Of a stretch of 10,043 nt of DNA, positions 1-10,043 are shown piece after piece. The notes under the pieces were generated by a model that was not told the DNA's origin, ran no database searches, and worked only from the letters and a program-made list of their open reading frames with translations. Source of the DNA: a virus (Duplodnaviria; Heunggongvirae; Uroviricota; Caudoviricetes); IMG/VR virus record IMGVR_UViG_2639762982_000013, positions 1 through 10,043 of that record; one strand, given 5' to 3'. Within the stretch, counting starts at the first letter, position 1. Every line of letters begins with the position of its first letter. Both the position numbers and the translations under genes were made by a program.

Positions 1-516
1 ATGAAATTTAAAAAATGTCTTCTGCCTGTGGCAATGTTAGCGTCATTCACTCTGGCAGGATGCCAGTCAAATGCTGACGATCATGCCGCCGATGTTTATC
101 AAACCGATCAACTGAATACCAAACAAGAAACTAAAACCGTTAATATTATTTCCATTCTTCCCGCAAAAGTTGCCGTAGACAACTCCCAAAATAAACGGAA
201 CGCACAAGCCTTCGGCGCGCTTATTGGCGCAGTCGCTGGCGGTGTTATCGGCCACAACGTCGGTTCTGGCAGCAATTCCGGAACGACGGCAGGGGCAGTT
301 GGCGGCGGAGCTGTAGGCGCGGCAGCGGGTTCTATGGTGAATGATAAAACCTTAGTGGAAGGTGTTTCTTTAACATATAAGGAAGGCACCAAAGTGTATA
401 CCTCTACCCAGGTGGGTAAAGAGTGCCAGTTTACGACAGGTTTAGCCGTTGTTATTACCACAACGTATAACGAAACGCGTATTCAGCCAAATACTAAATG
501 TCCTGAAAAGAGCTAA
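1..516 (+). CDS. yfgH: Outer-membrane lipoprotein with glycine-zipper domain (YfgH-like); host gene
   Basis: 171-aa ORF. Lipoprotein signal peptide with lipobox LAGC (Cys21). Gly/Ala-rich GxxxG zipper segment (GALIGAVAGGVIGHNVG...). Gene symbol from memory of E. coli K-12 yfgH (same length class), not verified. Confidence 0.8.
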   Translation: MKFKKCLLPVAMLASFTLAGCQSNADDHAADVYQTDQLNTKQETKTVNIISILPAKVAVDNSQNKRNAQAFGALIGAVAGGVIGHNVGSGSNSGTTAGAVGGGAVGAAAGSMVNDKTLVEGVSLTYKEGTKVYTSTQVGKECQFTTGLAVVITTTYNETRIQPNTKCPEKS

Positions 517-531
517 TAATCAGGAGGAGTC

Positions 532-1071
532 ATGAAGAAAGTTTTTCTTTGCGCCATCTTGGCCTCCTTAAGCTATCCGGCTATCGCCTCATCATTGCAG
601 GATCAACTCTCTGCTGTAGCAGAAGCTGAACAGCAAGGTAAAAATGAAGAGCAAAGGCAGCATGACGAATGGGTCGCGGAGCGCAACAGGGAAATCCAGC
701 AAGAGAAGCAACGTCGCGCAAATGCCCAGGCCGCCGCTAACAAAAGAGCGGCAACGGCAGCAGCAAATAAGAAAGCTCGTCAGGATAAACTGGACGCCGA
801 AGCCTCTGCGGACAAAAAACGCGATCAAAGTTATGAAGATGAGCTACGCAGCTTAGAGATTCAGAAACAAAAACTGGCGCTGGCGAAAGAAGAAGCCCGC
901 GTTAAGCGAGAAAACGAATTTATCGATCAGGAACTGAAGCACAAAGCTGCGCAAACCGATGTGGTGCAATCTGAAGCTGACGCCAACAGAAATATGACTG
1001 AAGGCGGTCGCGATCTGATGAAAAGCGTGGGCAAAGCAGAAGAGAACAAATCGGACAGCTGGTTTAATTAA
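532..1071 (+). CDS. yfgI: Secreted/periplasmic charged coiled-coil protein (YfgI-like); host gene
   Basis: 179-aa ORF, strong SD AGGAGG 7 nt upstream. Sec signal peptide (…AIA/SS), then K/E/Q/A-rich low-complexity helical region. Synteny with the preceding yfgH-like gene; symbol from memory. Confidence 0.75.
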   Translation: MKKVFLCAILASLSYPAIASSLQDQLSAVAEAEQQGKNEEQRQHDEWVAERNREIQQEKQRRANAQAAANKRAATAAANKKARQDKLDAEASADKKRDQSYEDELRSLEIQKQKLALAKEEARVKRENEFIDQELKHKAAQTDVVQSEADANRNMTEGGRDLMKSVGKAEENKSDSWFN

Positions 1072-1110
1072 TCGATGTTAGTAACTTCAAGCCTATGATT
1101 CTTGAAGATA

Positions 1111-1142
1111 AAAAACCCTCTGTAGTAACAGAGGGTTTTGTT
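1111..1142. terminator. Bidirectional rho-independent terminator downstream of yfgI
   Basis: A5-CCCTCTG-tagtaa-CAGAGGG-T4: 7-bp GC-rich stem with A-tract before and T-tract after, so it is readable on both strands. Confidence 0.6.
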
Positions 1143-1267
1143 CATTCATAGTGCAGGGATTAAAATCATTCCCACTCAATTATTTACGACACGCATAACC
1201 AATTGACTGATAACAACTTTCTGCAACCTGACTTTCACCGTACCGTTTTATATACCGTCACCGAAAA

Positions 1268-1765
1268 TCAGTACCACGATTTTTGCTTCTTCAGTGAATC
1301 GTATTGCTGTTCGCAGGATTCTCCTGCAATCCGATACTTTTCAGCCTCAGCTGCTGTTGCGTTGTAAACTCGATTGCTTTCTTCAAGCATGTCGGCGAGC
1401 ACACCGATGACCTTGCTGGCTGGCGTGCCAGTGGGGAAAGATCCGGTATAGTGTTCGGCGAGTCGCTTGGTTTTGTCAAGCTCGGCGCGCAGGCTGTCAG
1501 CAGCGGCATTAGCATGCTCAGCATCAACACGCGCCACATCGATACGGGATTGTGCTTCACGTTCAATTTGTGTTTTCTCCTGATCACGTTGTGACCTAGC
1601 CTTATCATTAGCCTGTTTCTGATCTTCCTGTGCCTGCGCATACCCGGCGTCGTACTGACGACTGCCGTGTGCATTCCAGGCTACAACTCCTGATATGACC
1701 AGAACAGCAAGCATCGCCATGATAACCAACTGTTTCCAGTATGCTTTTACGAATGCCCAGATCAT
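1268..1765 (-). CDS. Phage i-spanin (Rz-like inner-membrane spanin subunit)
   Basis: 165 aa with N-terminal TM helix, then charged helical periplasmic domain. Start overlaps endolysin stop (ATGA). Last gene of the lysis cassette and contains an embedded lipoprotein ORF. Confidence 0.7.
1291..1539 (-). CDS. Phage o-spanin (Rz1-like outer-membrane lipoprotein), embedded in the i-spanin gene in another frame
   Basis: Internal Met of the 127-aa alternate-frame ORF gives [17 protein letters not shown]…: signal peptide plus lipobox LTAC, then a Pro/Ser-rich short mature region, as in lambda Rz1. Fully nested in 1268-1765. Exact start uncertain (alternative Met at 1524); no strong SD. Confidence 0.55.
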   Translation of the reverse strand: MWRVLMLSMLMPLLTACAPSLTKPSDSPNTIPDLSPLARQPARSSVCSPTCLKKAIEFTTQQQLRLKSIGLQENPANSNTIH

Positions 1766-2391
1766 ACCGCCAGCGCCTTACTGGCAGTGATGTACCGAGC
1801 GCGCCGGTCGTCGATGCCGTTCCTGCCACCATTGATAATCAGAGTTACACGTGCAATATCGCCGGTATACTTCATGCAACCTTTGCTGGAGAAGAACCAC
1901 GCCGCGCTACGAGCCGCGTATTCGTCCTGCGCCAACAGTTCAGGATTCTCCAGCAGGTCCACTTTCAGGCCGTTTCCGCAATCACGATAGTTATTCAAAC
2001 CGGTAATCTGGATAAGTCCGCGGCCACGGTAATTCCAGCCATCACCAGAGGCATTGTTCCCCATGCGTTTGCTGTACACCAGATTGGCGATCGCTCTCTG
2101 GCGCTCGAGTGGCAATGGTGGTTCACCAGCACGGCGACCAAGTGCATTAGCCTGTCCCTGAGTGAGACGCCCAGCCCGAACGAAGTTAGCCAGTCCGGTG
2201 ACGCTGTAGTTGAAATTTTCCTGCAACCGGGTGAATCCACCAGACTCATGCCCGACCTGAGCAATAAACATTGCCTGATCTTCAGCTTTGCTGATACCAA
2301 ACTCTTTCATCGCAGAAGTTATATGCGAGAACCAGCGTGCGGCCAGCGCCTCGCTAATACCAGCAGCTCGCTGGAATTGTTTAATCTCCAT
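1762..2391 (-). CDS. Phage endolysin, glycoside hydrolase family 19 (chitinase class I-like)
   Basis: 209 aa. Motifs [21 protein letters not shown] and AAWFF typical of GH19 phage lysins. SD GAGG 8 nt upstream. Flanked by membrane proteins and spanins. Confidence 0.9.
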
Positions 2392-2689
2392 GTTTAGACC
2401 TCGTTATTTTAAAAATCTGCACGACGTTACCGCGCGTTTTAATAACCGCAGCTAGCATGACAGCGTTGATAATGACCTCAGATAAATCCACAGCCATTGG
2501 CGTACGTAACCAGATTGCATAGGCGACACGAACAGGAATACTGGCCGCAGCAACAATCAGGAAATAAGCAAGCCATCCTCCCCACCTTCGGTGTTGAGAG
2601 CCGTTACGCCGGAATGTGACAACGCGAATTGCTATGCCAGTGCAAATAACTGCATTGGTGATAAGCAAAAAAAACTCATGCGTTACCAT
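2381..2689 (-). CDS. Lysis-cassette small membrane protein (holin/antiholin-like)
   Basis: 102 aa with 2-3 predicted TM helices. SD GGAG 8 nt upstream. Overlaps the upstream gene by 14 nt and the endolysin start by 11 nt, indicating translational coupling. Confidence 0.55.
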
Positions 2690-3089
2690 CGTCTTTTCTC
2701 CCCGGAATTAACTCGCGTGGATTATCGGAACGGTGATAAAGCCATATACCAATTCGCACAGCGACAATTGACGACACAAATGCGCCAGCAGAGAAGACGA
2801 TCCCTTTCTCGAAAGAGTCCTGCGTGATGGTAGGGATCAGGCTGGCTACACCGATAAGGATGGATGCTGTAGGTTTGTAAAAGAGAAGGCCGCAGAGGAA
2901 GCTGAGCATAGACAGGAGAACCCGGCGATGAATGGGATACTCGATGGCTGAGGTAACAAAAATTACCGCCCCAGCCAAAGCTCCCAAAGCCACCTCTGGA
3001 GGAACCCCTGCTATCACCGCAGCAAGAGAACTCGCACTAAGCCACTGATTTAAAGACTCACTGGTTAGCTGAACTGACATAAAAAACAC
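2676..3089 (-). CDS. Putative holin (multi-pass membrane protein), first gene of lysis cassette
   Basis: 137 aa with 3-4 hydrophobic helices and a charged C-terminus. Position directly upstream of the endolysin. Start may be the second ATG at 3080. Family not recognised. Confidence 0.55.
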   Translation of the reverse strand: MFFMSVQLTSESLNQWLSASSLAAVIAGVPPEVALGALAGAVIFVTSAIEYPIHRRVLLSMLSFLCGLLFYKPTASILIGVASLIPTITQDSFEKGIVFSAGAFVSSIVAVRIGIWLYHRSDNPRELIPGRKDDGNA

Positions 3090-3185
3090 CGTTTAATGTG
3101 CATAAAGAATCCCCTTAGTTGGTTAGTTCATCATACACAATAAACCATATGTGGATTAAACTTGATCTGATAATTCTTAACGAAA

Positions 3186-3200
3186 TTACCTTAAAGGTGA
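3186..3200. promoter_or_regulatory. Palindromic site A (TTACC-TTAAA-GGTGA), member of a five-copy family
   Basis: Lies in the 212-bp gap between the tail fibre and the lysis operon, about 100 bp upstream of the holin start. One mismatch from a perfect palindrome. Flank ATATC is shared with site C. Confidence 0.4.
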
Positions 3201-3301
3201 TATCATAAATATCCTTGTGTCATTTAAAATTAGAGTTAGGGCATGATAGCCAACATACAATATTTGCGTTTTCTCGCTGCATTCCTTGGCGATGACTTCT
3301 C

Positions 3302-5065
3302 TTAAACAACAATTTTAAGGAAATTTGAAGCATCCTTATAGATGGTGCCCGCGGTGGCGCCGTTTATCTCCTCAAGCGTTTTTACATTCTTCAAAACCAC
3401 CTTGCCATCTTCCAGAAATTCAATGCATGGTGCGTCGTTGTTCATGTTTATTTTCAACGAACCAACAGCACTACCTCCGTTTCCGCTTATCCATTCAAGT
3501 GACGCAATAGGAAGTGCATTGCCGTTGTGATCTGTCCCTTGTAGCAAGATCCTTCCAGTTCCTACCCCTGGTATTCTGATAGCTGCGCGACCACCATCCT
3601 CTAAAACTACTTCCAAAATTTCTTTAGGATATTTTGTGTGCACTCCTACACGCGTCAGCGAACCACCACCACCAGGGACGACGGCAATACCTGGAATAAG
3701 CGATTCTGCAAAAAGCATCACTGAGTCTTTATGTGGATTGATTGCTGGCTTATCGTCATTAGTGCCGCTCCCTATCGCAATCGAACCACCATAAGCCTGA
3801 ATATTCTTACCTACAGCAAAAGAGCCATCTCCTGCCGCGCGAGTTCGATATCCAATGGCTGCCGCACCAATGCCATCACTTGCAACCCCGCCGGGGTCTG
3901 TAGTGTATCCCGGTCTGGCTTGTGTATAATAACCTGTTGCAAAAGCCGCCCTTGAAAGCGCTTCCGTTTCTTCACAGAATGCGGCAGATTTTGCTCCAAG
4001 AGCAATGACATTTTTCCCAAATGCAAAAGAGCAGTACCCCTCAGCATTTGGTGAGGTAATATGATCTGGGTCCCCAGTGGCAGAACCAGCACCACCGGCA
4101 ATAGATGCCACGCCGTACGTAACGCAGTCATGCCCGAAAGTTGTGGTGTATACCGCGAATGACGCACCGTTTCTGTTAAAAGATACTGAGTAATCACCGA
4201 TAAGAGCCGGGTTACACCATGAATTTCTCGGTGTAGGCAAGCCTCTCCAGAAGTTCTTTTCATCGTCAAGTGGTAGGAGATCGGCACCACCAATTCTCAG
4301 CCAACCTTTATCCTTATCAAAAGAAAAAGTGACGCCATCGGTTAAAGTAGATCCAACCGGTATACCGTAATTAACTTTTGTGCCAATCCTCTTAAGCCCG
4401 TCAGGTTGCGCCAGCAATAACAGAACATCTGCTGCACTACCGCTCTCAGGCAAGACCATAATGGACTCACCTGCATAATCATATGCATGGATCATATTTG
4501 CACGTTCTGCAGCAGGAGGGAGTTGCCGCGTAAATGACTCTGGAACCCTTAACGTGTGCAGATAGTTGTTGTTACTAATCGTGTCTACATAATTTTTAGT
4601 GGCAGCATCCTGCGGGTCTCGTGGGTCGCGCAGGTTGCGAATGTAATTCCCCAGCGCGTCGTACCAGTTAGCGATGGTTGATGGCTTGCGCAGCGCCAAG
4701 GCAAACCAACTGCGAACCTGCTGGATCAGCATCGTCAGTTTATCGAATGCGTCTTCATGCACCTCAGCGAAGAACTTACCCTGGTTGCGCAGATCGGTAT
4801 CCTGCGTAACCGGTAGCTCTCTTGATATAGAAATCTGATAACCGTTAGCCAACGCCTTCGACAGAATTACATTGCCGCCGTTATACCCTCCCGCACCAGT
4901 GACTATGTAATCAGTATCAAGAATCAGCTCTGTGATGTTCTCGTTCAGGTCAACAACCTGCACTACTAAATCAGATTTCTGGAAAATCCTGAAGGTATAA
5001 GGGAATGCCGTTGTAACACCGTTACCTGTGTATTCGTTGTGGTCAACTTCGGTTGAGACCGTCAT
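3302..5065 (-). CDS. Phage tail fibre / tailspike protein
   Basis: 587 aa. The N-terminal ~150 aa (MTVSTEVDHNEYTGNGVTTAFPYTF…DYIVTG) resembles the conserved T7 gp17-type virion-attachment domain. The C-terminal two thirds are Gly/Ala/Ser-rich with repeated beta-strand-like motifs (SFAVGKN, SIAIGSGT, IGAAAIGY), as in trimeric receptor-binding domains. Confidence 0.85.
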   Translation of the reverse strand: MTVSTEVDHNEYTGNGVTTAFPYTFRIFQKSDLVVQVVDLNENITELILDTDYIVTGAGGYNGGNVILSKALANGYQISISRELPVTQDTDLRNQGKFFAEVHEDAFDKLTMLIQQVRSWFALALRKPSTIANWYDALGNYIRNLRDPRDPQDAATKNYVDTISNNNYLHTLRVPESFTRQLPPAAERANMIHAYDYAGESIMVLPESGSAADVLLLLAQPDGLKRIGTKVNYGIPVGSTLTDGVTFSFDKDKGWLRIGGADLLPLDDEKNFWRGLPTPRNSWCNPALIGDYSVSFNRNGASFAVYTTTFGHDCVTYGVASIAGGAGSATGDPDHITSPNAEGYCSFAFGKNVIALGAKSAAFCEETEALSRAAFATGYYTQARPGYTTDPGGVASDGIGAAAIGYRTRAAGDGSFAVGKNIQAYGGSIAIGSGTNDDKPAINPHKDSVMLFAESLIPGIAVVPGGGGSLTRVGVHTKYPKEILEVVLEDGGRAAIRIPGVGTGRILLQGTDHNGNALPIASLEWISGNGGSAVGSLKINMNNDAPCIEFLEDGKVVLKNVKTLEEINGATAGTIYKDASNFLKIVV

Positions 5066-5169
5066 GTTAAATCTCCAGATAGTCGCAGCACCCGTTGCGC
5101 CGCATATCTGGTTATTCTATTACCTGAAAAACCACATATGGATAGAAAGACTATAAATACCAATAGATA

Positions 5170-5184
5170 TTACCTTTCGGGTAA
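5170..5184. promoter_or_regulatory. Palindromic site B (TTACC-TTTCG-GGTAA)
   Basis: Perfect 5-bp inverted arms with a 5-nt spacer in the divergent region between the tail fibre gene and the small SOS-box gene. Confidence 0.4.
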
Positions 5185-5221
5185 TTTGCAAAACGTGCTG
5201 GATAGCAAACAAATTATTTGA

Positions 5222-5241
5222 TACTGTATATTTATACAGTT
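5222..5241. promoter_or_regulatory. LexA (SOS) box
   Basis: TACTGTATATTTATACAGTT matches the E. coli LexA consensus TACTGTATATATATACAGTA at 18/20, with CTGT-N8-ACAG intact. Located 20 bp upstream of the ATG at 5261 and overlapping a plausible -10. Confidence 0.7.
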
Positions 5242-5260
5242 ATTGCATGGAGAAGATAAG

Positions 5261-5518
5261 ATGCAGCAGTATCACTATCCACTGGAAGACGGATTTACCG
5301 AAAGGATTCACACGCCGGGAGGCGTCAGGTCACTGGTGGAGGGATCGCACTTGATGAAATTACTCCGGGATCTCGATAAGGATGGATTTAATGTCGATGG
5401 CCCACTTGCCGAACTGACTGCACTGATTAACTACGTCACCAGCTCACAGATGTCTATGCTGGATCTGCAAACACATCTCGACTATTGTGCCGAACAATTA
5501 CGAAAACAAACCCGGTAA
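5261..5518 (+). CDS. Small SOS-regulated protein, candidate Tum-like antirepressor (homologous to C-terminal domain of the AntA protein at 6669-7325)
   Basis: 85 aa from the ATG at 5261 with SD GGAGAAG; the ORF track extends it to a TTG at 5243. Roughly 40% identity by eye to the last ~80 aa of the 218-aa AntA-domain protein (IH[TS]P[GS]GV…LM.LL..L..DG..V.G..AELT…D.QTH..Y). LexA box immediately upstream. Confidence 0.6.
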   Translation: MQQYHYPLEDGFTERIHTPGGVRSLVEGSHLMKLLRDLDKDGFNVDGPLAELTALINYVTSSQMSMLDLQTHLDYCAEQLRKQTR

Positions 5519-5522
5519 ATTT

Positions 5523-5542
5523 AAAGGCCGCAAGAGCGGCCT
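5523..5542. terminator. Bidirectional rho-independent terminator between convergent genes
   Basis: AGGCCGC-aaga-GCGGCCT stem-loop with A-rich 5' flank and T-rich 3' flank. Sits between the + gene ending at 5518 and the - gene ending at 5541. Confidence 0.6.
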
Positions 5543-6269
5543 ATCGTTTCGCTTTGTGCTCGTCCCAGCACGTTTTGCACCATGCCATTAAGCCATCCGC
5601 ATTTTGATTATTAGGGTAAAAGCTTGTTCGTTTTCTGCGGACATTACAAATTGGGCACCACTTCATATGGCGTGTATTCTTTGGGCCATCGAGACACCTT
5701 GCACACCACTTAGTCAATCCATCTGGATTTTTTGACGATTTCCTGAATTTTTCATATGGTAGGTTTATTCTGCATCGCAAGCACTGCTTGCTACCACTTG
5801 AAACTCTGTTAGCTGATTCTTCTTTTGGCGGCGATACAGAAGGTATTCTTGCTGGCTCTGATACTGCCTGAGGTGCTTTTTTAGATGACTGAGACGATAT
5901 GTCATCACCAGGGAATCTTCCATGATATGCCGGACGCGTTGACACTCCAGGTGGAAGCTCAGCTGTAAACGGCTTTGGCTGAATCAGTTGCCTCTCTTTT
6001 GCTAACTCCTGCTGTTTATAATATGTCTGGATTACCGCACTATCATAAGCAGGAGGTGCGGAAATATTAGGCGCATTACCTCCAGTTTTTTGAAACTGAG
6101 TAGAGGTGTGTTCTATCACCTGTGTACGATTAATCGTTATCTCCCCATCTTCGGTCTTTATCGTTTTGTTATGATTAACGACCGTACGATCAGAGATCTT
6201 AGTCTTGTTCTGGTTGATAACGTAAATAATCACCGCAACCACACCAACAACTATCCAGAAAACTTCCAT
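5541..6269 (-). CDS. Membrane-anchored protein with tandem C4 zinc-ribbon repeats (function unknown)
   Basis: 242 aa. N-terminal TM helix (residues ~4-20) followed by K/R (positive-inside), a Pro/Ser/Gln-rich linker, then two copies of CxxC-x16-DGL-x2-WC-x2-C. SD GAGGA 8 nt upstream of the ATG. Confidence 0.7.
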   Translation of the reverse strand: MEVFWIVVGVVAVIIYVINQNKTKISDRTVVNHNKTIKTEDGEITINRTQVIEHTSTQFQKTGGNAPNISAPPAYDSAVIQTYYKQQELAKERQLIQPKPFTAELPPGVSTRPAYHGRFPGDDISSQSSKKAPQAVSEPARIPSVSPPKEESANRVSSGSKQCLRCRINLPYEKFRKSSKNPDGLTKWCARCLDGPKNTRHMKWCPICNVRRKRTSFYPNNQNADGLMAWCKTCWDEHKAKR

Positions 6270-6289
6270 TGCTTTTCCTCACAATAACA

Positions 6290-6304
6290 TTACCTTAAAG
6301 GTAA
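6290..6304. promoter_or_regulatory. Palindromic site C (TTACC-TTAAA-GGTAA)
   Basis: Perfect palindrome about 10 bp upstream of the SD of the minus-strand zinc-ribbon gene. Core identical to sites A and D. Confidence 0.4.
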
Positions 6305-6382
6305 TATCTTGCTTTCAGGTGATCAAGCGTTAAACGCAATCAACCAAATACGGTTGATTTTAATATTTCTTCGCGTTTATCA

Positions 6383-6397
6383 TTACCTTTGCGGTAA
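6383..6397. promoter_or_regulatory. Palindromic site E (TTACC-TTTGC-GGTAA)
   Basis: Same arms as the other sites, with a spacer like site B. Lies just upstream of the structured leader preceding the AntA gene. Confidence 0.35.
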
Positions 6398-6488
6398 ATT
6401 TACATTGCACTCCTCTTGTGCCATAGTAATCGGGCACTGGCAAAATCCAGTGCCGGGATTGGTCTCCCGGATTACTAAGTGGCGCATA

Positions 6489-6510
6489 CCACGCCAGACG
6501 TGGTTTTTTT
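6489..6510 (+). terminator. Putative intrinsic terminator / attenuator hairpin in the leader of the AntA-like gene
   Basis: CCACG-ccaga-CGTGG followed by T7. Preceded by two GC-rich hairpins (6433-6454 and 6453-6470) that share bases, so alternative pairings are possible. Confidence 0.4.
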
Positions 6511-6668
6511 ATGCGTATAGCACAGTCATGCCAGAATTATGGTGGGCTGAATGGGGGTCCGAAAGGACGCCGGTACCACTTAGGCCGGTAAGACCAACTC
6601 CGTTCAGTTCACCACCATCTGATTGGTCTCAGCGGTGGTGATGTAATTCGCTAAGTGGAGACGCCATC

Positions 6669-7325
6669 ATGAACGCTCAACTCATCCCCGTATTCAACGG
6701 CACTATATCTAACGAAACAGCCCTACTTTGTAATGCCCGCGATCTGCACGCTTTTTTAGGTGTTAAAAAGGTGTTTGCAGCATGGATTACAAATCGCATA
6801 TCAGAATACGAATTCATTGAAAATCAAGACTATATTTTGCTTTCCAATTTGGGAAAGCAAACATCTGGTAGAGGCGGCCACAACCGCAAAGAGTACCACC
6901 TCACCCTTGATACAGCCAAAGAGCTGGCGATGGTCGAGCGTAACGAAAAAGGTCGCCAGGTGCGACGCTACTTCATTGAATGCGAGAAACGTTTAAGACA
7001 ACAAGAAACAAAAGTGGAGAAGGTCTTGTCAGGCTTCATGCCCGCCATTATGGAGGCGATCAAGCTGGAAGACAAAAAAGAATACAGCGCCCCACTGAAG
7101 CCCGGCTACCGCAGCCTGATTCATTCGCCGTCTGGTGTTCTTGGACTGACGGAGAACTCACTGCTGATGAATCTGCTGAACCAGTTACAGGACGACGGGC
7201 ATGACGTATCGGGCGCGGCGGCGGAGCTGACCACCATGTTCTGCTACATCGTCGGTGTGAGCAAATGCCTGCGTGATATCCAGACGCACGCGGAGTACAT
7301 CAGCGACAAAGCAGGATTCTTCTGA
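6669..7325 (+). CDS. Phage antirepressor-like protein, N-terminal AntA-type domain with a C-terminal domain shared with the 5261-5518 protein
   Basis: 218 aa, SD GGAG 8 nt upstream. N-terminal region ([10 protein letters not shown]…[33 protein letters not shown]) matches the AntA/pRha-type antirepressor N-domain pattern. C-terminal ~80 aa is paralogous to the small SOS-box protein. Confidence 0.8.
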
Positions 7326-7391
7326 CGGGCGGCGGCACAGGGATGTGCCTTTAAAATAATCATTGGCGATGTGATGTAGATTCGCGTAATA

Positions 7392-7406
7392 TTACCTTAA
7401 AGGTAA
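7392..7406. promoter_or_regulatory. Palindromic site D (TTACC-TTAAA-GGTAA)
   Basis: Perfect palindrome about 43 bp upstream of the ATG at 7449, the first gene of the low-GC two-gene module. Confidence 0.4.
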
Positions 7407-7448
7407 ACCTGTTTTTATTTTATACCTGTAACTTACCGGAGATTAAAG

Positions 7449-7775
7449 ATGACAAAACTTGGATTCGTGATGAGAGGTCCGGTAAGAAGCGGAACTCATG
7501 CAAAGCGTAGCAAGAGTCGTATTTTTACTGGTAAGGTTGTAGCACGTAAATCAGCTATTGGCTCGTTCAATAGTGAAAATGCGGCATTGCGCCATATTTT
7601 TATCAGCACAAAGCCAAGAGCATCCGCTGATGTGCATACAATGTCTATTCCTATCACAAAGAATATAAAGCGGATAAAAAAGCTCTCATCTGCAGAATCA
7701 AAAGAGATATCTTTCCGCCAGCTTAACTCATTAGAAACGCATATGAAGGAAGAGGAATTCGATGTTTTTGAGTGA
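7449..7775 (+). CDS. Small highly basic protein, candidate antitoxin / partner of the downstream YafO-like protein
   Basis: 108 aa, SD GGAG 8 nt upstream. Very K/R-rich N-terminal two thirds and an acidic C-terminal tail (EEEFDVFE). Overlaps the downstream gene by 14 nt. No recognisable Phd/YefM or other antitoxin fold from sequence. Confidence 0.5.
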   Translation: MTKLGFVMRGPVRSGTHAKRSKSRIFTGKVVARKSAIGSFNSENAALRHIFISTKPRASADVHTMSIPITKNIKRIKKLSSAESKEISFRQLNSLETHMKEEEFDVFE

Positions 7776-8274
7776 GTATAGCGGGAAGGTTATACCTACT
7801 GGTGAGTTTAAAACTGATGACTTTCTGATTTCGCTAAAAGATGCTTTTAAACAACACTGGCGTCATGGTCATCATCCTGATCTGGGAAAAGATACTCTTT
7901 TTGAAAGACCAGACGAAGTATTAGGCTTCCATCTCAGAAAGGTTCATGTCAATATTGGTGAATATGCATCATATTCATACTCATGTACTGAACAGTGTTG
8001 GGATGAGTGGTCATATGGATTGATTGATGAACAAGGAAATTACAGGCCAAAACCAACCAGTAACGCATATCTCATATATGCAGTCAATGAAATAAGAGAT
8101 GCAGCCTTACTAGCTTATTGGGACCCGCCCGCACACACCAAAGCTAACGCAAAAGTTTGGATGGATTCCGTATTGAATTTCACAAAATTATTTCATGAAC
8201 GAACGAATACAGCCCCACTTAGTAGAAATGTTTATCCGTGGGATTATTCGTACAAATCCAAAAAGCCTGCATAG
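7762..8274 (+). CDS. YafO-like toxin-domain protein (putative ribosome-dependent mRNA interferase)
   Basis: 170 aa with a strong SD (AGGAAGAGGA). From memory of E. coli YafO, the motifs align: PDLGKDTLFE / FHLRKVHVNI / AYLIYAV…AALLAYWDPPAHTKA versus YafO PDIFGRDALYD / FERVAHIHLA / AHLVYCQ…AWLLIAILKPEPHKLA. About 40 aa longer than YafO. Local GC is about 38-40% against about 50% in the flanks. Confidence 0.55.
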   Translation: MFLSEYSGKVIPTGEFKTDDFLISLKDAFKQHWRHGHHPDLGKDTLFERPDEVLGFHLRKVHVNIGEYASYSYSCTEQCWDEWSYGLIDEQGNYRPKPTSNAYLIYAVNEIRDAALLAYWDPPAHTKANAKVWMDSVLNFTKLFHERTNTAPLSRNVYPWDYSYKSKKPA

Positions 8275-8355
8275 TAGTTTTTTATGGACGAAACAAAAGT
8301 CAGTGCTACACTCATTGACGCCACATTGAGGTGGCTTATAGATGGAAATGTCACA

Positions 8356-8517
8356 ATGAAAAAAGCATTTGCTGCACTGTTCGTTTTGTTGTCTCTGGTA
8401 GCTTCAACTCAGGCCTTTGCCGGTCGTTGTCAGCACGACAGCGATACTGCCGCTGACGGCTCCCGCTGCGGTGGGCGTTCTGCGGATTCCCGCCCGGGCG
8501 GTGGTGGCATTCGTTAA
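8356..8517 (+). CDS. Small secreted Cys/Gly-rich peptide (hypothetical)
   Basis: Internal Met of the 77-aa ORF gives MKKAFAALFVLLSLVASTQAFA/GRCQ…, a canonical Sec signal peptide with AxA cleavage site and a ~31-aa mature peptide containing 2 Cys and a Gly-rich tail. Weak SD; local GC is high. Confidence 0.4.
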   Translation: MKKAFAALFVLLSLVASTQAFAGRCQHDSDTAADGSRCGGRSADSRPGGGGIR

Positions 8518-8522
8518 AAACA

Positions 8523-8540
8523 AGGCCGCGAAAGCGGCCT
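8523..8540. terminator. Bidirectional rho-independent terminator (mainly for the minus-strand membrane-protein gene)
   Basis: AGGCCGC-gaaa-GCGGCCT, near-identical stem to the terminator at 5523-5542. On the minus strand it is followed by TTTTTAAC. Confidence 0.55.
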
Positions 8541-8548
8541 GTGACATG

Positions 8549-8845
8549 TCACACTCTTTTTCTGAATGATAGCCATTCGAAAAATGATGACATTCCACCG
8601 CAGACAATAGCAAAGATGATCCCACCAAAGAATAGAAGGCCAGCCTGCCACCACTCCCACCGCCATACATCCACAGCGCCAACCATACCAACAATCGCTC
8701 CAACAAATGGAATATAGCTCACGATGAAAGCAATGGGGGCTGCAATTATCCAGTGCAATCCCCACCATGATTCAAGCCCAGCCATAATTGCTGCCAACTG
8801 AAAAAGACCAACGACGATATAAACAATGAATCCTATCGCTTGCAT
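8549..8845 (-). CDS. Small Trp-rich integral membrane protein (3 predicted TM helices), function unknown
   Basis: 98 aa, hydrophobic throughout with a WRWEWW motif. The terminator lies immediately downstream. A possible 50-codon hydrophobic ORF with a GTG start (8858-9010) sits 14 nt upstream. Confidence 0.6.
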   Translation of the reverse strand: MQAIGFIVYIVVGLFQLAAIMAGLESWWGLHWIIAAPIAFIVSYIPFVGAIVGMVGAVDVWRWEWWQAGLLFFGGIIFAIVCGGMSSFFEWLSFRKRV

Positions 8846-9040
8846 GTAGTTACCTATTTACCCAGTAAAAATCAGAGGCCTCCCCTCAATAAGGCTTGCA
8901 ACAAGAACTACTCCCTGCACAACAAAGATGAACCAGCAAATAGCTTGAGTCTGAGGGTTAAGAAAATATTTGTAGCGGTCAATAAATAACAGTCCACCAG
9001 AAATTATCACACTCAAAATAATTAAAAACACAACACTTCC

Positions 9041-9865
9041 TTATTGCGGAGTGACATCCTGAGGTCGCCACCAGTATGTCTGGTTAAACTCTTTCTTCGA
9101 ACGTTGCTCCATTTTACGCAAATAGCCTGGTGAAAAATACTCCTGCATCTGGTTAAAGATCATGTGATCGAGAGCCGCCTTCAAGTACCAGAGATTCGCA
9201 CCAGGCATCAAACCTTTCCCCAGCTTCACCAGATCACCACCAGTCTGCTCACTCTTCCCTTCCACAGCATTTAACGGTATGCCCTGAGCAATCTTCACTA
9301 CGTCATCAACCAGACCAGCTACCGGGCCAAGCATCGACGCCAGCGCGCCGCTTCCGTACCTAGTGTGATCTGACAATAAAAAGTCACCGTAAAGGCCAAG
9401 ACCACCACCTTTCAGTAGAGCACCAAGCCAAAATTTAGCAGCATCTTCTCCTGTCATCTCGCGAGGATTACGACCAGACGCAAGGTCGTTAAGTTGCTGC
9501 GACAAAGCGCCAAGAATGGTCGTACTGGCAATAAACGTCGCAATATATGCCGCACGCCCACCAGCAGACGGCATACCCATAGCGCGTGACCAGTGACGCA
9601 TAACCACCGAGATAGGGAACGATTTAAACAGGAAAACACTTCTCGTTAATTCACCTTTCCATGTTCCACGCTGAATACCAGAACCGGTTATCAGTTGCTC
9701 ACGTGCTCCCGGTGTAATAACAGCCATATCAACTTCTTCAGTTACGGCACCGAGCAGTTTACGCATTGCCTCAAATTTCACGCGTTCAGGCTCACCAAGA
9801 TGTTTAACTGCTGAATCAGGGATACGCATAATGCTTTCCGGTGTCAGCATCGTATTATTACCGTT
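9041..9865 (-). pseudogene. 3' fragment of a phage protein (possibly virion/ejection-associated) truncated by IS2 insertion
   Basis: The 283-aa ORF listed from 9892 takes its first 9 codons (MSGNIGANP) from inside the IS2 terminal repeat. The native reading frame continues upstream across the IS boundary at 9865/9866, so the N-terminal part of the gene lies beyond IS2. No family recognised. Confidence 0.55.
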
Positions 9866-10043
9866 TGGATTTGCCCCTATATTTCCAGACACCTGTTATC
9901 ACTTAACCCATTACTGGCTTGCTGCCGTAGATATTCCCGTGGCGAGCGATAACCCAGTGCACTATGCGGATGCCATTCGTTATAATGCTCGAATGCCTCT
10001 GCAAGGTTCTTTGCTGCCGTTAACCCGTCTGGTTTGGGCATGA
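9866..10043 (-). mobile_element. IS2 (IS3 family), partial: right terminal repeat and 3' end of the transposase; the element continues beyond the window
   Basis: The reverse complement of 9866-9908 reads GGTTAAGTGATAACAGGTGTCTGGAAATATAGGGGCAAATCCA, which matches the IS2 right end as I recall it. The adjoining ORF encodes an IS3-family transposase C-terminus. Confidence 0.8.
9877..10043 (-). CDS. insD: IS2 transposase OrfB (InsD) C-terminal end, partial
   Basis: Minus-strand translation …[54 protein letters not shown] with stop at 9877-9879. The motif [13 protein letters not shown] is characteristic of the IS3-family integrase C-terminus. The 5' part is outside the window. Confidence 0.8.

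Follow-up and report, generated by a model that had tools for sequence, protein, structure and literature searches.

A five-gene lysis cassette of the epsilon15/phiV10 type, with a nested spanin gene and a conserved pair of putative holin-family membrane proteins, in an Escherichia coli prophage

The closest described relatives of the system considered here are the lysis cassettes of Uetakevirus phages (Salmonella epsilon15 and SPN1S; Escherichia phiV10, TL-2011b, and vB_EcoP_PAS61; and Enterobacter Tyrion), which contain the same five genes, in the same order and with the same overlapping junctions, as a cassette at positions 1268–3089 of IMG/VR virus record IMGVR_UViG_2639762982_000013. We analyzed positions 1–10,043 of that record, a stretch of 10,043 nucleotides (nt) that we refer to as the window, and we use the names hol1 and hol2 for the first two genes of its cassette, each encoding a membrane protein; these are followed by genes for a GH19 endolysin and an inner-membrane spanin (i-spanin), as well as for an outer-membrane spanin (o-spanin) nested within the i-spanin gene. 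The RefSeq record of Tyrion annotates a membrane protein, a holin, an endolysin, an Rz-like spanin, and a nested Rz-like spanin in the order found in the window, and the genome announcement of this phage names "endolysin, holin, and spanin" (PMC5754475). Kongari et al. (2018) place epsilon15, phiV10, TL-2011b, and SPN1S in one family of embedded i-/o-spanins, "Bcep176" (PMC6139136); the window spanins are close homologs of members of this family, and nothing substantive sets them apart. Given the Tyrion annotation, the published spanin census, and a crystallized endolysin homolog at 82% identity, the cassette is already known. Compared with the Uetakevirus phages, the window copy shows only allelic differences and is a prophage at guaA.

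The more distant point of reference is the S-R-Rz/Rz1 cassette of phage lambda. In both systems a holin is followed by a soluble endolysin and then by a two-component spanin, with the o-spanin gene contained wholly in that of the i-spanin, in its +1 frame. However, no component of the window cassette is sequence-homologous to its lambda counterpart, and the window contains two separate membrane-protein genes rather than one dual-start gene (S107/S105). The mature o-spanin has 66 amino acids (aa) in the window and 40 in Rz1. Finally, the window endolysin is a predicted GH19 muramidase, whereas lambda R is a transglycosylase.

The list of open reading frames (ORFs) and the sequence itself place five ORFs on the minus strand of 1268–3089, which are given below together with two short elements of the o-spanin gene.

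2676–3080, minus strand: hol1, 134 aa from ATG 3080, PF16931 (Phage_holin_8) and phrog_198, putative holin or antiholin.
2381–2689, minus strand: hol2, 102 aa with three predicted transmembrane (TM) helices, PF05449 (Phage_holin_3_7) and phrog_217.
1762–2391, minus strand: GH19 endolysin, 209 aa, PF00182 and phrog_181, soluble.
1268–1765, minus strand: i-spanin (Rz-like), 165 aa, DUF2514 and phrog_312.
1291–1566, minus strand: o-spanin (Rz1-like) lipoprotein, inside the i-spanin gene in its +1 frame, phrog_11621.
1489–1503, minus strand: lipobox L-L-T-A-C of the o-spanin, with its Cys codon at 1489–1491, read directly from the sequence.
1577–1581, minus strand: AGGAG Shine–Dalgarno sequence of the o-spanin gene, read from the sequence.

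All five products match lysis families in Pfam and PHROGs, and NCBIfam yields no informative match for any of the five. The hol1 and hol2 genes overlap by 14 nt (2676–2689), hol2 and the endolysin gene by 11 nt (2381–2391), and the endolysin stop and i-spanin start codons by 4 nt in the sequence ATGA (1762–1765). These are exactly the overlaps given in an original prediction, made from the DNA letters without database searches, that the locus is a five-gene overlapping lysis cassette; the ORFs and the family matches confirm that the observation is real and its reading correct. Shine–Dalgarno sequences precede hol2 (GGGGAG) and the endolysin gene (GAGG). We consider it very likely that this is a late-expressed lysis cassette of the epsilon15/phiV10 type that works by the three-step lambda paradigm.

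By that paradigm, the translationally coupled products of hol1 and hol2 would first accumulate in the inner membrane and, at a programmed time, form large non-specific holes; Hol2, with three TM helices in an N-out/C-in arrangement, would be the more likely hole-former, and Hol1, with three or four TM helices, its obligate partner, for which an antiholin or timing regulator would be the likeliest role. In the second step the soluble GH19 muramidase, which has no export signal, would escape through these holes and cut the glycan strands of peptidoglycan with residues E49 and E58. In the third step the inner-membrane i-spanin and the outer-membrane lipoprotein o-spanin, pre-linked by their C-terminal parts and by disulfides, would fuse both membranes once the meshwork of the wall is gone, and virions would be released.

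The endolysin is the component with the closest structural precedent. Its match to PF00182 scores 39.1 bits (cut-off 25.5), it also matches phrog_181 ("endolysin"), and it is identical to the endolysin of Salmonella phage SPN1S (PDB 4OK7) at 170 of 208 positions (82%; E = 2e-114), which bears out its earlier designation as a GH19 enzyme. The catalytic pair is E49 (2245–2247) and E58 (2218–2220). The arrangement H48-E49…E58 is identical to that in SPN1S, and the HESGG…E stretch that contains both glutamates, [12 protein letters not shown], is identical in 4OK7. E49 and E58 are equivalent to E51 and E60 of PaGH19Lys, a related GH19 enzyme that has been shown biochemically to be an N-acetylmuramidase and that has been compared with SPN1S; in structural alignment, its E51 and E60 coincide with the catalytic glutamates of GH19 chitinases (PMC12329726). 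By analogy, the window endolysin would have muramidase activity on peptidoglycan. A 15-residue Kyte–Doolittle scan of the endolysin detected no hydrophobic segment reaching the threshold, and neither a signal peptide nor a signal-anchor-release (SAR) segment is present; this lack of a hydrophobic segment suggests a soluble enzyme that needs a canonical large-hole holin. We rejected a SAR endolysin/pinholin system because the endolysin does not have a hydrophobic N-terminal segment.

The hol2 product, Hol2, matches PF05449 ("putative 3TM holin") with 94.2 bits and also phrog_217 ("holin"). Its hydropathy profile has segments at residues 5–24, 37–59, and 65–86, with a strongly basic first loop (R22–R35) and a basic C-terminal tail (K/R at 84–99), and an AlphaFold2 model with a mean predicted local distance difference test (pLDDT) score of 64.5 contains three helices at 3–28, 35–61, and 67–99. 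The predicted topology is N-out/C-in, similar to class I holins in size and layout, and the features expected of that class are present: 102 aa, three TM helices, a basic C-terminus, and a gene adjoining that of the endolysin.

The hol1 product, Hol1, is less regular. Its maximal ORF starts at GTG 3089 and would encode 137 aa beginning MFFM…, whereas a start at ATG 3080 gives 134 aa. Homologs are annotated at 134 aa in the examined phage records and in a genome annotated by the Prokaryotic Genome Annotation Pipeline (PGAP), which corresponds to ATG 3080, and this codon rather than GTG 3089 is probably the start. The extra residues M-F-F of the GTG start are uncharged, so the twin starts do not constitute a lambda-style dual-start antiholin motif. 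Hol1 matches PF16931 with 48.8 bits (cut-off 26.4) and phrog_198 ("holin") at 1e-39. Hydropathy delineates three to four hydrophobic segments (approximately 26–48, 52–69, 71–87, and 92–115), and the AlphaFold2 model (pLDDT 62.7) has helices at 7–24, 28–44, 50–79, and 89–118, the first of which is weakly hydrophobic and rich in Ala, Ser, and Gly; curators of Hol1 relatives state three TM helices in an N-out/C-in arrangement. The models of Hol1 and Hol2 (pLDDT 63–65) served for helix counting only. The original prediction had placed two different membrane proteins ahead of the GH19 lysin and had made their role in lysis depend on their family membership; both fall in putative-holin families, above the respective Pfam gathering thresholds, and neither belongs to a non-lysis family.

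The two genes are associated well beyond Uetakevirus. In tblastn searches, relatives of hol2 were found in 229 phage records from many genera and recognizable relatives of hol1 in only 37, nearly all of them from Uetakevirus. We then examined the gene upstream of hol2 in contexts picked by hol2 similarity alone, comprising 15 phage records (D3, HK639, Chris1, yong2, Mana, RS-AB1, M16-3, LPM4, Pylas, TR2, EcP1, Seifer, MA12, CF136b, and vB_YpM_41) and three prophage contexts (in Citrobacter, Burkholderia, and Shewanella genomes). A PF16931 gene lies immediately upstream of the hol2 relative, overlapping or abutting it, in 18 of 18 contexts, which represent six lineages (Uetakevirus-like, lambdoid, D3, Casjensviridae, Peduoviridae, and Schitoviridae). 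The upstream partners in the 15 other phages match a hol1-family profile with 79.9–166.9 bits (E values of 1e-24 to 1e-51), and the start and stop codons of the pair nearly always overlap or abut (1–14 nt). The endolysin downstream of the pair varies (GH19, PG_binding_1 plus Muramidase, and others), as does the spanin architecture, and the annotation of phage D3 has no endolysin gene directly after the pair. Invariable pairing alongside varying endolysins and spanins suggests that the pair is a mobile two-gene unit.

Several described systems can be compared with this unit. In Burkholderia phages KS5, KS14, and KL3, a 113–124-aa protein with three to four TM helices is encoded directly upstream of an 88–106-aa three-TM DUF754 (PF05449) holin, followed by an endolysin and Rz/Rz1 (PMC3091744), and in Burkholderia phage Mana and Burkholderia prophages the upstream partner belongs to PF16931, as in the window. 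The Burkholderia P2-like cassettes differ in having a PG_binding_1 plus Muramidase endolysin where the window has a GH19 enzyme, and spanin genes of the overlapped type where those of the window are embedded. In phage P2 itself, the Y and LysA proteins of the holin–antiholin system are not homologous, and gene K separates them; genetic evidence for an antiholin exists for P2 LysA only. Phage N4 likewise has two co-conserved membrane-protein genes upstream of its endolysin gene, and experiments show that both the gp63 pinholin and the gp62 holin affect lysis (bioRxiv 10.1101/2025.11.12.688109). However, gp63 and gp62 have one and two TM helices, respectively, and act with a SAR endolysin, and on the grounds of topology, not of a sequence comparison, we rejected them as members of the Hol1 and Hol2 families. 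Other Schitoviridae (Pylas, TR2, and EcP1) carry the PF16931/PF05449 pair.

How the two proteins divide their roles is a matter on which curators have already taken positions. They already handle the two genes as a unit: in records of the Center for Phage Technology, which refer to the epsilon15 proteins, the wordings are "antiholin paired with adjacent holin" and "holin or antiholin class I", and Lynch et al. (2010) described the pair in KS5, KS14, and KL3 as a "putative antiholin" and a "DUF754 holin" (PMC3091744). Holin/antiholin pairing, which the original prediction raised alongside a holin plus a lysis regulator, is still a hypothesis, and one that predates this work. Co-occurrence in all 18 contexts and translational coupling suggest that Hol1 and Hol2 are partners, with Hol1 a putative antiholin. 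We tentatively favor Hol2 as the holin and Hol1 as an antiholin or regulator, with confidence just short of even.

A broader proposal, which we regard as possible but rather doubtful, is that PF16931 and PF05449 constitute a two-component holin with obligate partners. The pair would then either form a heteromeric hole or consist of a holin and its dedicated antiholin, a separate protein and not an isoform, in which the first, weakly hydrophobic helix would be inhibitory and releasable; as a unit, it would have dispersed among six or more unrelated lineages, combining with different endolysins and spanins. If this were true, calling the PF05449 gene alone "holin" could be incomplete or inverted. 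The strictest form of the proposal, an obligate hetero-oligomer in which neither protein forms holes alone, seems unlikely to us. Strict adjacency in every sampled context of six lineages, whatever the type of endolysin or spanin, speaks for it, as does the overlap or abutment of start and stop codons, which suggests coupled, stoichiometric translation, and a single product carrying both domains is on record; but the same co-conservation is expected of holin–antiholin pairs, no two-component canonical holin of such a kind has been demonstrated, and the fused product may reflect a sequencing frameshift. This product (P0095, from a Logan assembly) has 232 aa with PF16931 and PF05449 domains, amounts to a fusion of hol1 and hol2 across the 14-nt overlap, and belongs to a cluster of 21 sequences; a true fused variant would explain it, but so would a frameshift or an error of assembly.

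We likewise think it improbable that the roles are the reverse of those we favor, with Hol1 the hole-forming holin and Hol2 the antiholin or regulator. It is true that hol1 opens the cassette, that its product has a charged cytoplasmic C-terminal tail, and that several records label both genes "holin", or "holin or antiholin" without choosing; in addition, the first gene of the alp cassette of Pseudomonas aeruginosa is called a holin and the second an anti-holin (PMC7969949), although homology of these genes to hol1 and hol2 is not established. It is Hol2, however, that has the size of a class I holin, the three-TM N-out/C-in layout, the basic C-terminus, and a gene directly preceding that of the endolysin, and for most curators (including PMC3091744) the PF05449 member is the holin, a consensus that is based on annotation and not on experiment. 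For AlpB and AlpC, the "putative holin and anti-holin" of P. aeruginosa (PMC7969949), a link to the Hol1 and Hol2 families is conceivable; a protein search seeded with orf89 of phage D3 gave no match present in as many contigs as a core gene of P. aeruginosa should be. That Hol1 is a membrane "moron" (e.g., a superinfection-exclusion or O-antigen-related protein) merely beside the cassette is very improbable: the neighboring region of Uetakevirus genomes does hold serotype-conversion genes such as an O-antigen acetylase, and many records name Hol1 only "membrane protein" or "hypothetical protein", but the 14-nt overlap with hol2 speaks against this reading, phages without the conversion genes (P2-like, N4-like, lambdoid, D3-like, and Casjensviridae) have the hol1 family alongside PF05449 in their lysis cassettes, Hol1 scores above the Pfam threshold of a putative-holin family, and strict linkage to hol2 in lysis cassettes argues strongly against it.

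At the distal end of the cassette, the i-spanin matches DUF2514 with 82.9 bits and phrog_312 ("Rz-like spanin") at 2.8e-53. It has a single N-terminal hydrophobic segment (residues ~8–33 by Kyte–Doolittle) followed by a helical periplasmic domain rich in K, R, D, and E, with Cys151 near the C-terminus, and two IMG/VR prophage contigs carry a 100% identical i-spanin. Wholly within its gene lies a +1-frame ORF (1674–1291) of 127 aa from the first ATG, which matches phrog_11621 ("Rz-like spanin") at 2.5e-25. The alignment begins at residue 41 of this long ORF, which places the real start of the o-spanin near GTG 1560. The functional start is probably TTG 1566 or GTG 1560, giving a product of 91 or 89 aa; AGGAG lies 10 nt upstream of the former and 16 nt upstream of the latter. 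From GTG 1560 the protein reads [23 protein letters not shown], followed after the predicted cleavage site by CAPS…, and thus comprises a basic n-region, a hydrophobic core, and a lipobox L-T-A-C; the lipoprotein signal was judged by direct reading of the motif. With Ala at position +2, the lipoprotein should be sorted to the outer membrane. The mature o-spanin would have 66 aa with eight Pro and three Cys residues (the lipid-modified Cys, Cys31, and Cys35). Both spanins have periplasmic Cys residues that could form intermolecular disulfides.

Comparative evidence for the nested gene comes from 80 related viral loci taken from IMG/VR with the i-spanin as query. None of the 80 interrupts the +1 frame, each retains the lipobox LL[T/A/G]AC, and the motif SSVCSPTC, which contains the two further Cys residues of the o-spanin, is kept in all of them as well. 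A dual-coding test on 32 distinct 498-nt i-spanin alleles shows that diversity at third codon positions of the i-spanin gene falls from 0.181 in codons 2–68 to 0.049 in the overlapped codons 69–158, a 3.7-fold drop. Frame +1 is free of stops in 32/32 alleles, frame +2 contains stops in 32/32, and TTG 1566 and GTG 1560 are both invariant throughout the set. The o-spanin spans 0.41–0.95 of the i-spanin length, a range typical of embedded spanins according to Kongari et al. (2018) (PMC6139136). The original prediction had proposed an o-spanin lipoprotein nested in another frame of the i-spanin gene in the manner of Rz/Rz1 and had made this depend on a lipobox Cys conserved among homologs; the frame, the lipobox, the retention of its Cys in every related locus, and the dual-coding constraint bear the proposal out. 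It is hardly credible that the nested ORF is a chance open frame and that the i-spanin alone or some other protein disrupts the outer membrane, since its lack of annotation by PGAP and in several phage records and its non-ATG start at a long Shine–Dalgarno spacing are set against a frame open in every related locus with three invariant Cys residues, a closed alternative frame and reduced i-spanin synonymous-site diversity in the overlap, and a family match to proteins catalogued as embedded o-spanins (PMC6139136). We posit that the two spanins form a physical complex with a role in disruption of the outer membrane.

The prediction had also held that the o-spanin is easy to miss. This proved correct, in that PGAP calls four cassette genes but not the o-spanin in near-identical E. 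coli prophages (in RefSeq it is called for phage Tyrion); however, the reason offered, a length below typical ORF cut-offs, does not hold, as the maximal ORF has 127 aa and the cause is the nesting.

Some points weigh against reading the locus as a lysis cassette of the lambda type. Hol2 does not have the lambda-style dual-start motif (S107/S105), its N-terminus MVTHEFF offering a single start with no second Met or basic residue; a dual start is typical of lambda S but not defining for holins generally. The topology of Hol1 may comprise three or four TM helices, and the pLDDT values of 63–65 apply to the models of both membrane proteins. The start of the o-spanin is ambiguous between TTG 1566 and GTG 1560, and for both codons the Shine–Dalgarno distance (10 or 16 nt) exceeds the optimum. 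The searchable literature yielded no experiment on any PF16931 or PF05449 member, only annotations and one use of a "holin" gene in quantitative PCR, in work on Uetakevirus (PMC9782041), and "holin" is therefore an annotation of these families and not a demonstrated function.

The genomic setting of the cassette is that of a prophage. Its DNA is 80–92% identical to that of Uetakevirus phages (PAS61, TL-2011b, phiV10, Tyrion, and epsilon15-like and SPN1S-like phages), and positions 1–1071 of the window are E. coli chromosome, with yfgH at 1–516 and yfgI/DUF5384 at 532–1071. Homology to prophage-free E. coli runs to ~1180, the annotated 3' end of guaA, and phage homology begins at ~1163–1165. 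This boundary makes the cassette the final operon of a prophage that has inserted at the 3' end of guaA, and from these homologies we identify the window as an E. coli Uetakevirus (epsilon15/phiV10-type) prophage at that site. Approximately 529 of 5426 complete E. coli genomes (about a tenth) match across the prophage–guaA junction. Two features mark this end of the prophage.

1112–1139, no strand assigned: bidirectional hairpin terminator with a 12-bp stem and flanking A-runs and T-runs.
1163–1180, no strand assigned: prophage–chromosome junction, probably the att core, with the last guaA codons (…IEWE*) at 1166–1180 on the minus strand.

The terminator hairpin is located in host DNA, between yfgI on the plus strand and the end of the cassette on the minus strand, and closes the cassette in the prophage state. 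At the other end, scanning the minus strand upstream of hol1 revealed no sigma-70-like promoter. This absence and the shared orientation with the tailspike gene (3302–5065) are consistent with, and give some weak support to, late-operon expression by read-through from that gene; in one paper on Uetakevirus, the genes for structure, lysis, and packaging are described as running in one direction (PMC9782041).

Between the tailspike gene and hol1 is a 212-nt non-coding gap (3090–3301), the position at which PAS61 and Tyrion, unlike the window, have an O-antigen acetylase gene. The gene at 3302–5065 (minus strand) encodes a 587-aa tailspike or tail-fiber protein. Over the N-terminal ~230 residues it matches many families of phage tail proteins, phrog_1640 best of all; the C-terminal remainder has diverged and gives no more than a weak match to the YadA head repeat, a pattern that fits a swapped receptor-binding domain. 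Farther into the window, the prophage accessory region contains an AntA/BRO-N type antirepressor gene at 6669–7325 on the plus strand (PF08346, E = 4e-26). At 7449–8274, also on the plus strand, a 108-aa ORF overlaps a 170-aa ORF by 14 nt; PGAP names the latter a YafO-family type II toxin in near-identical genomes, its Pfam YafO match is weak (E = 9.5e-4), and the two ORFs are probably a prophage-borne toxin–antitoxin pair.

This is a textbook-style lysis cassette of a well-sequenced phage genus, and the finding matters little in itself. It has value for annotation: in E. coli prophages, PGAP skips the o-spanin and gives the i-spanin no name beyond "DUF2514 family protein". The scientific question that remains, flagged earlier in the annotations of others, is the division of labor between Hol1 and Hol2, and an answer would carry over to numerous phages of Enterobacteria, Pseudomonas, Burkholderia, Ralstonia, and Shewanella.

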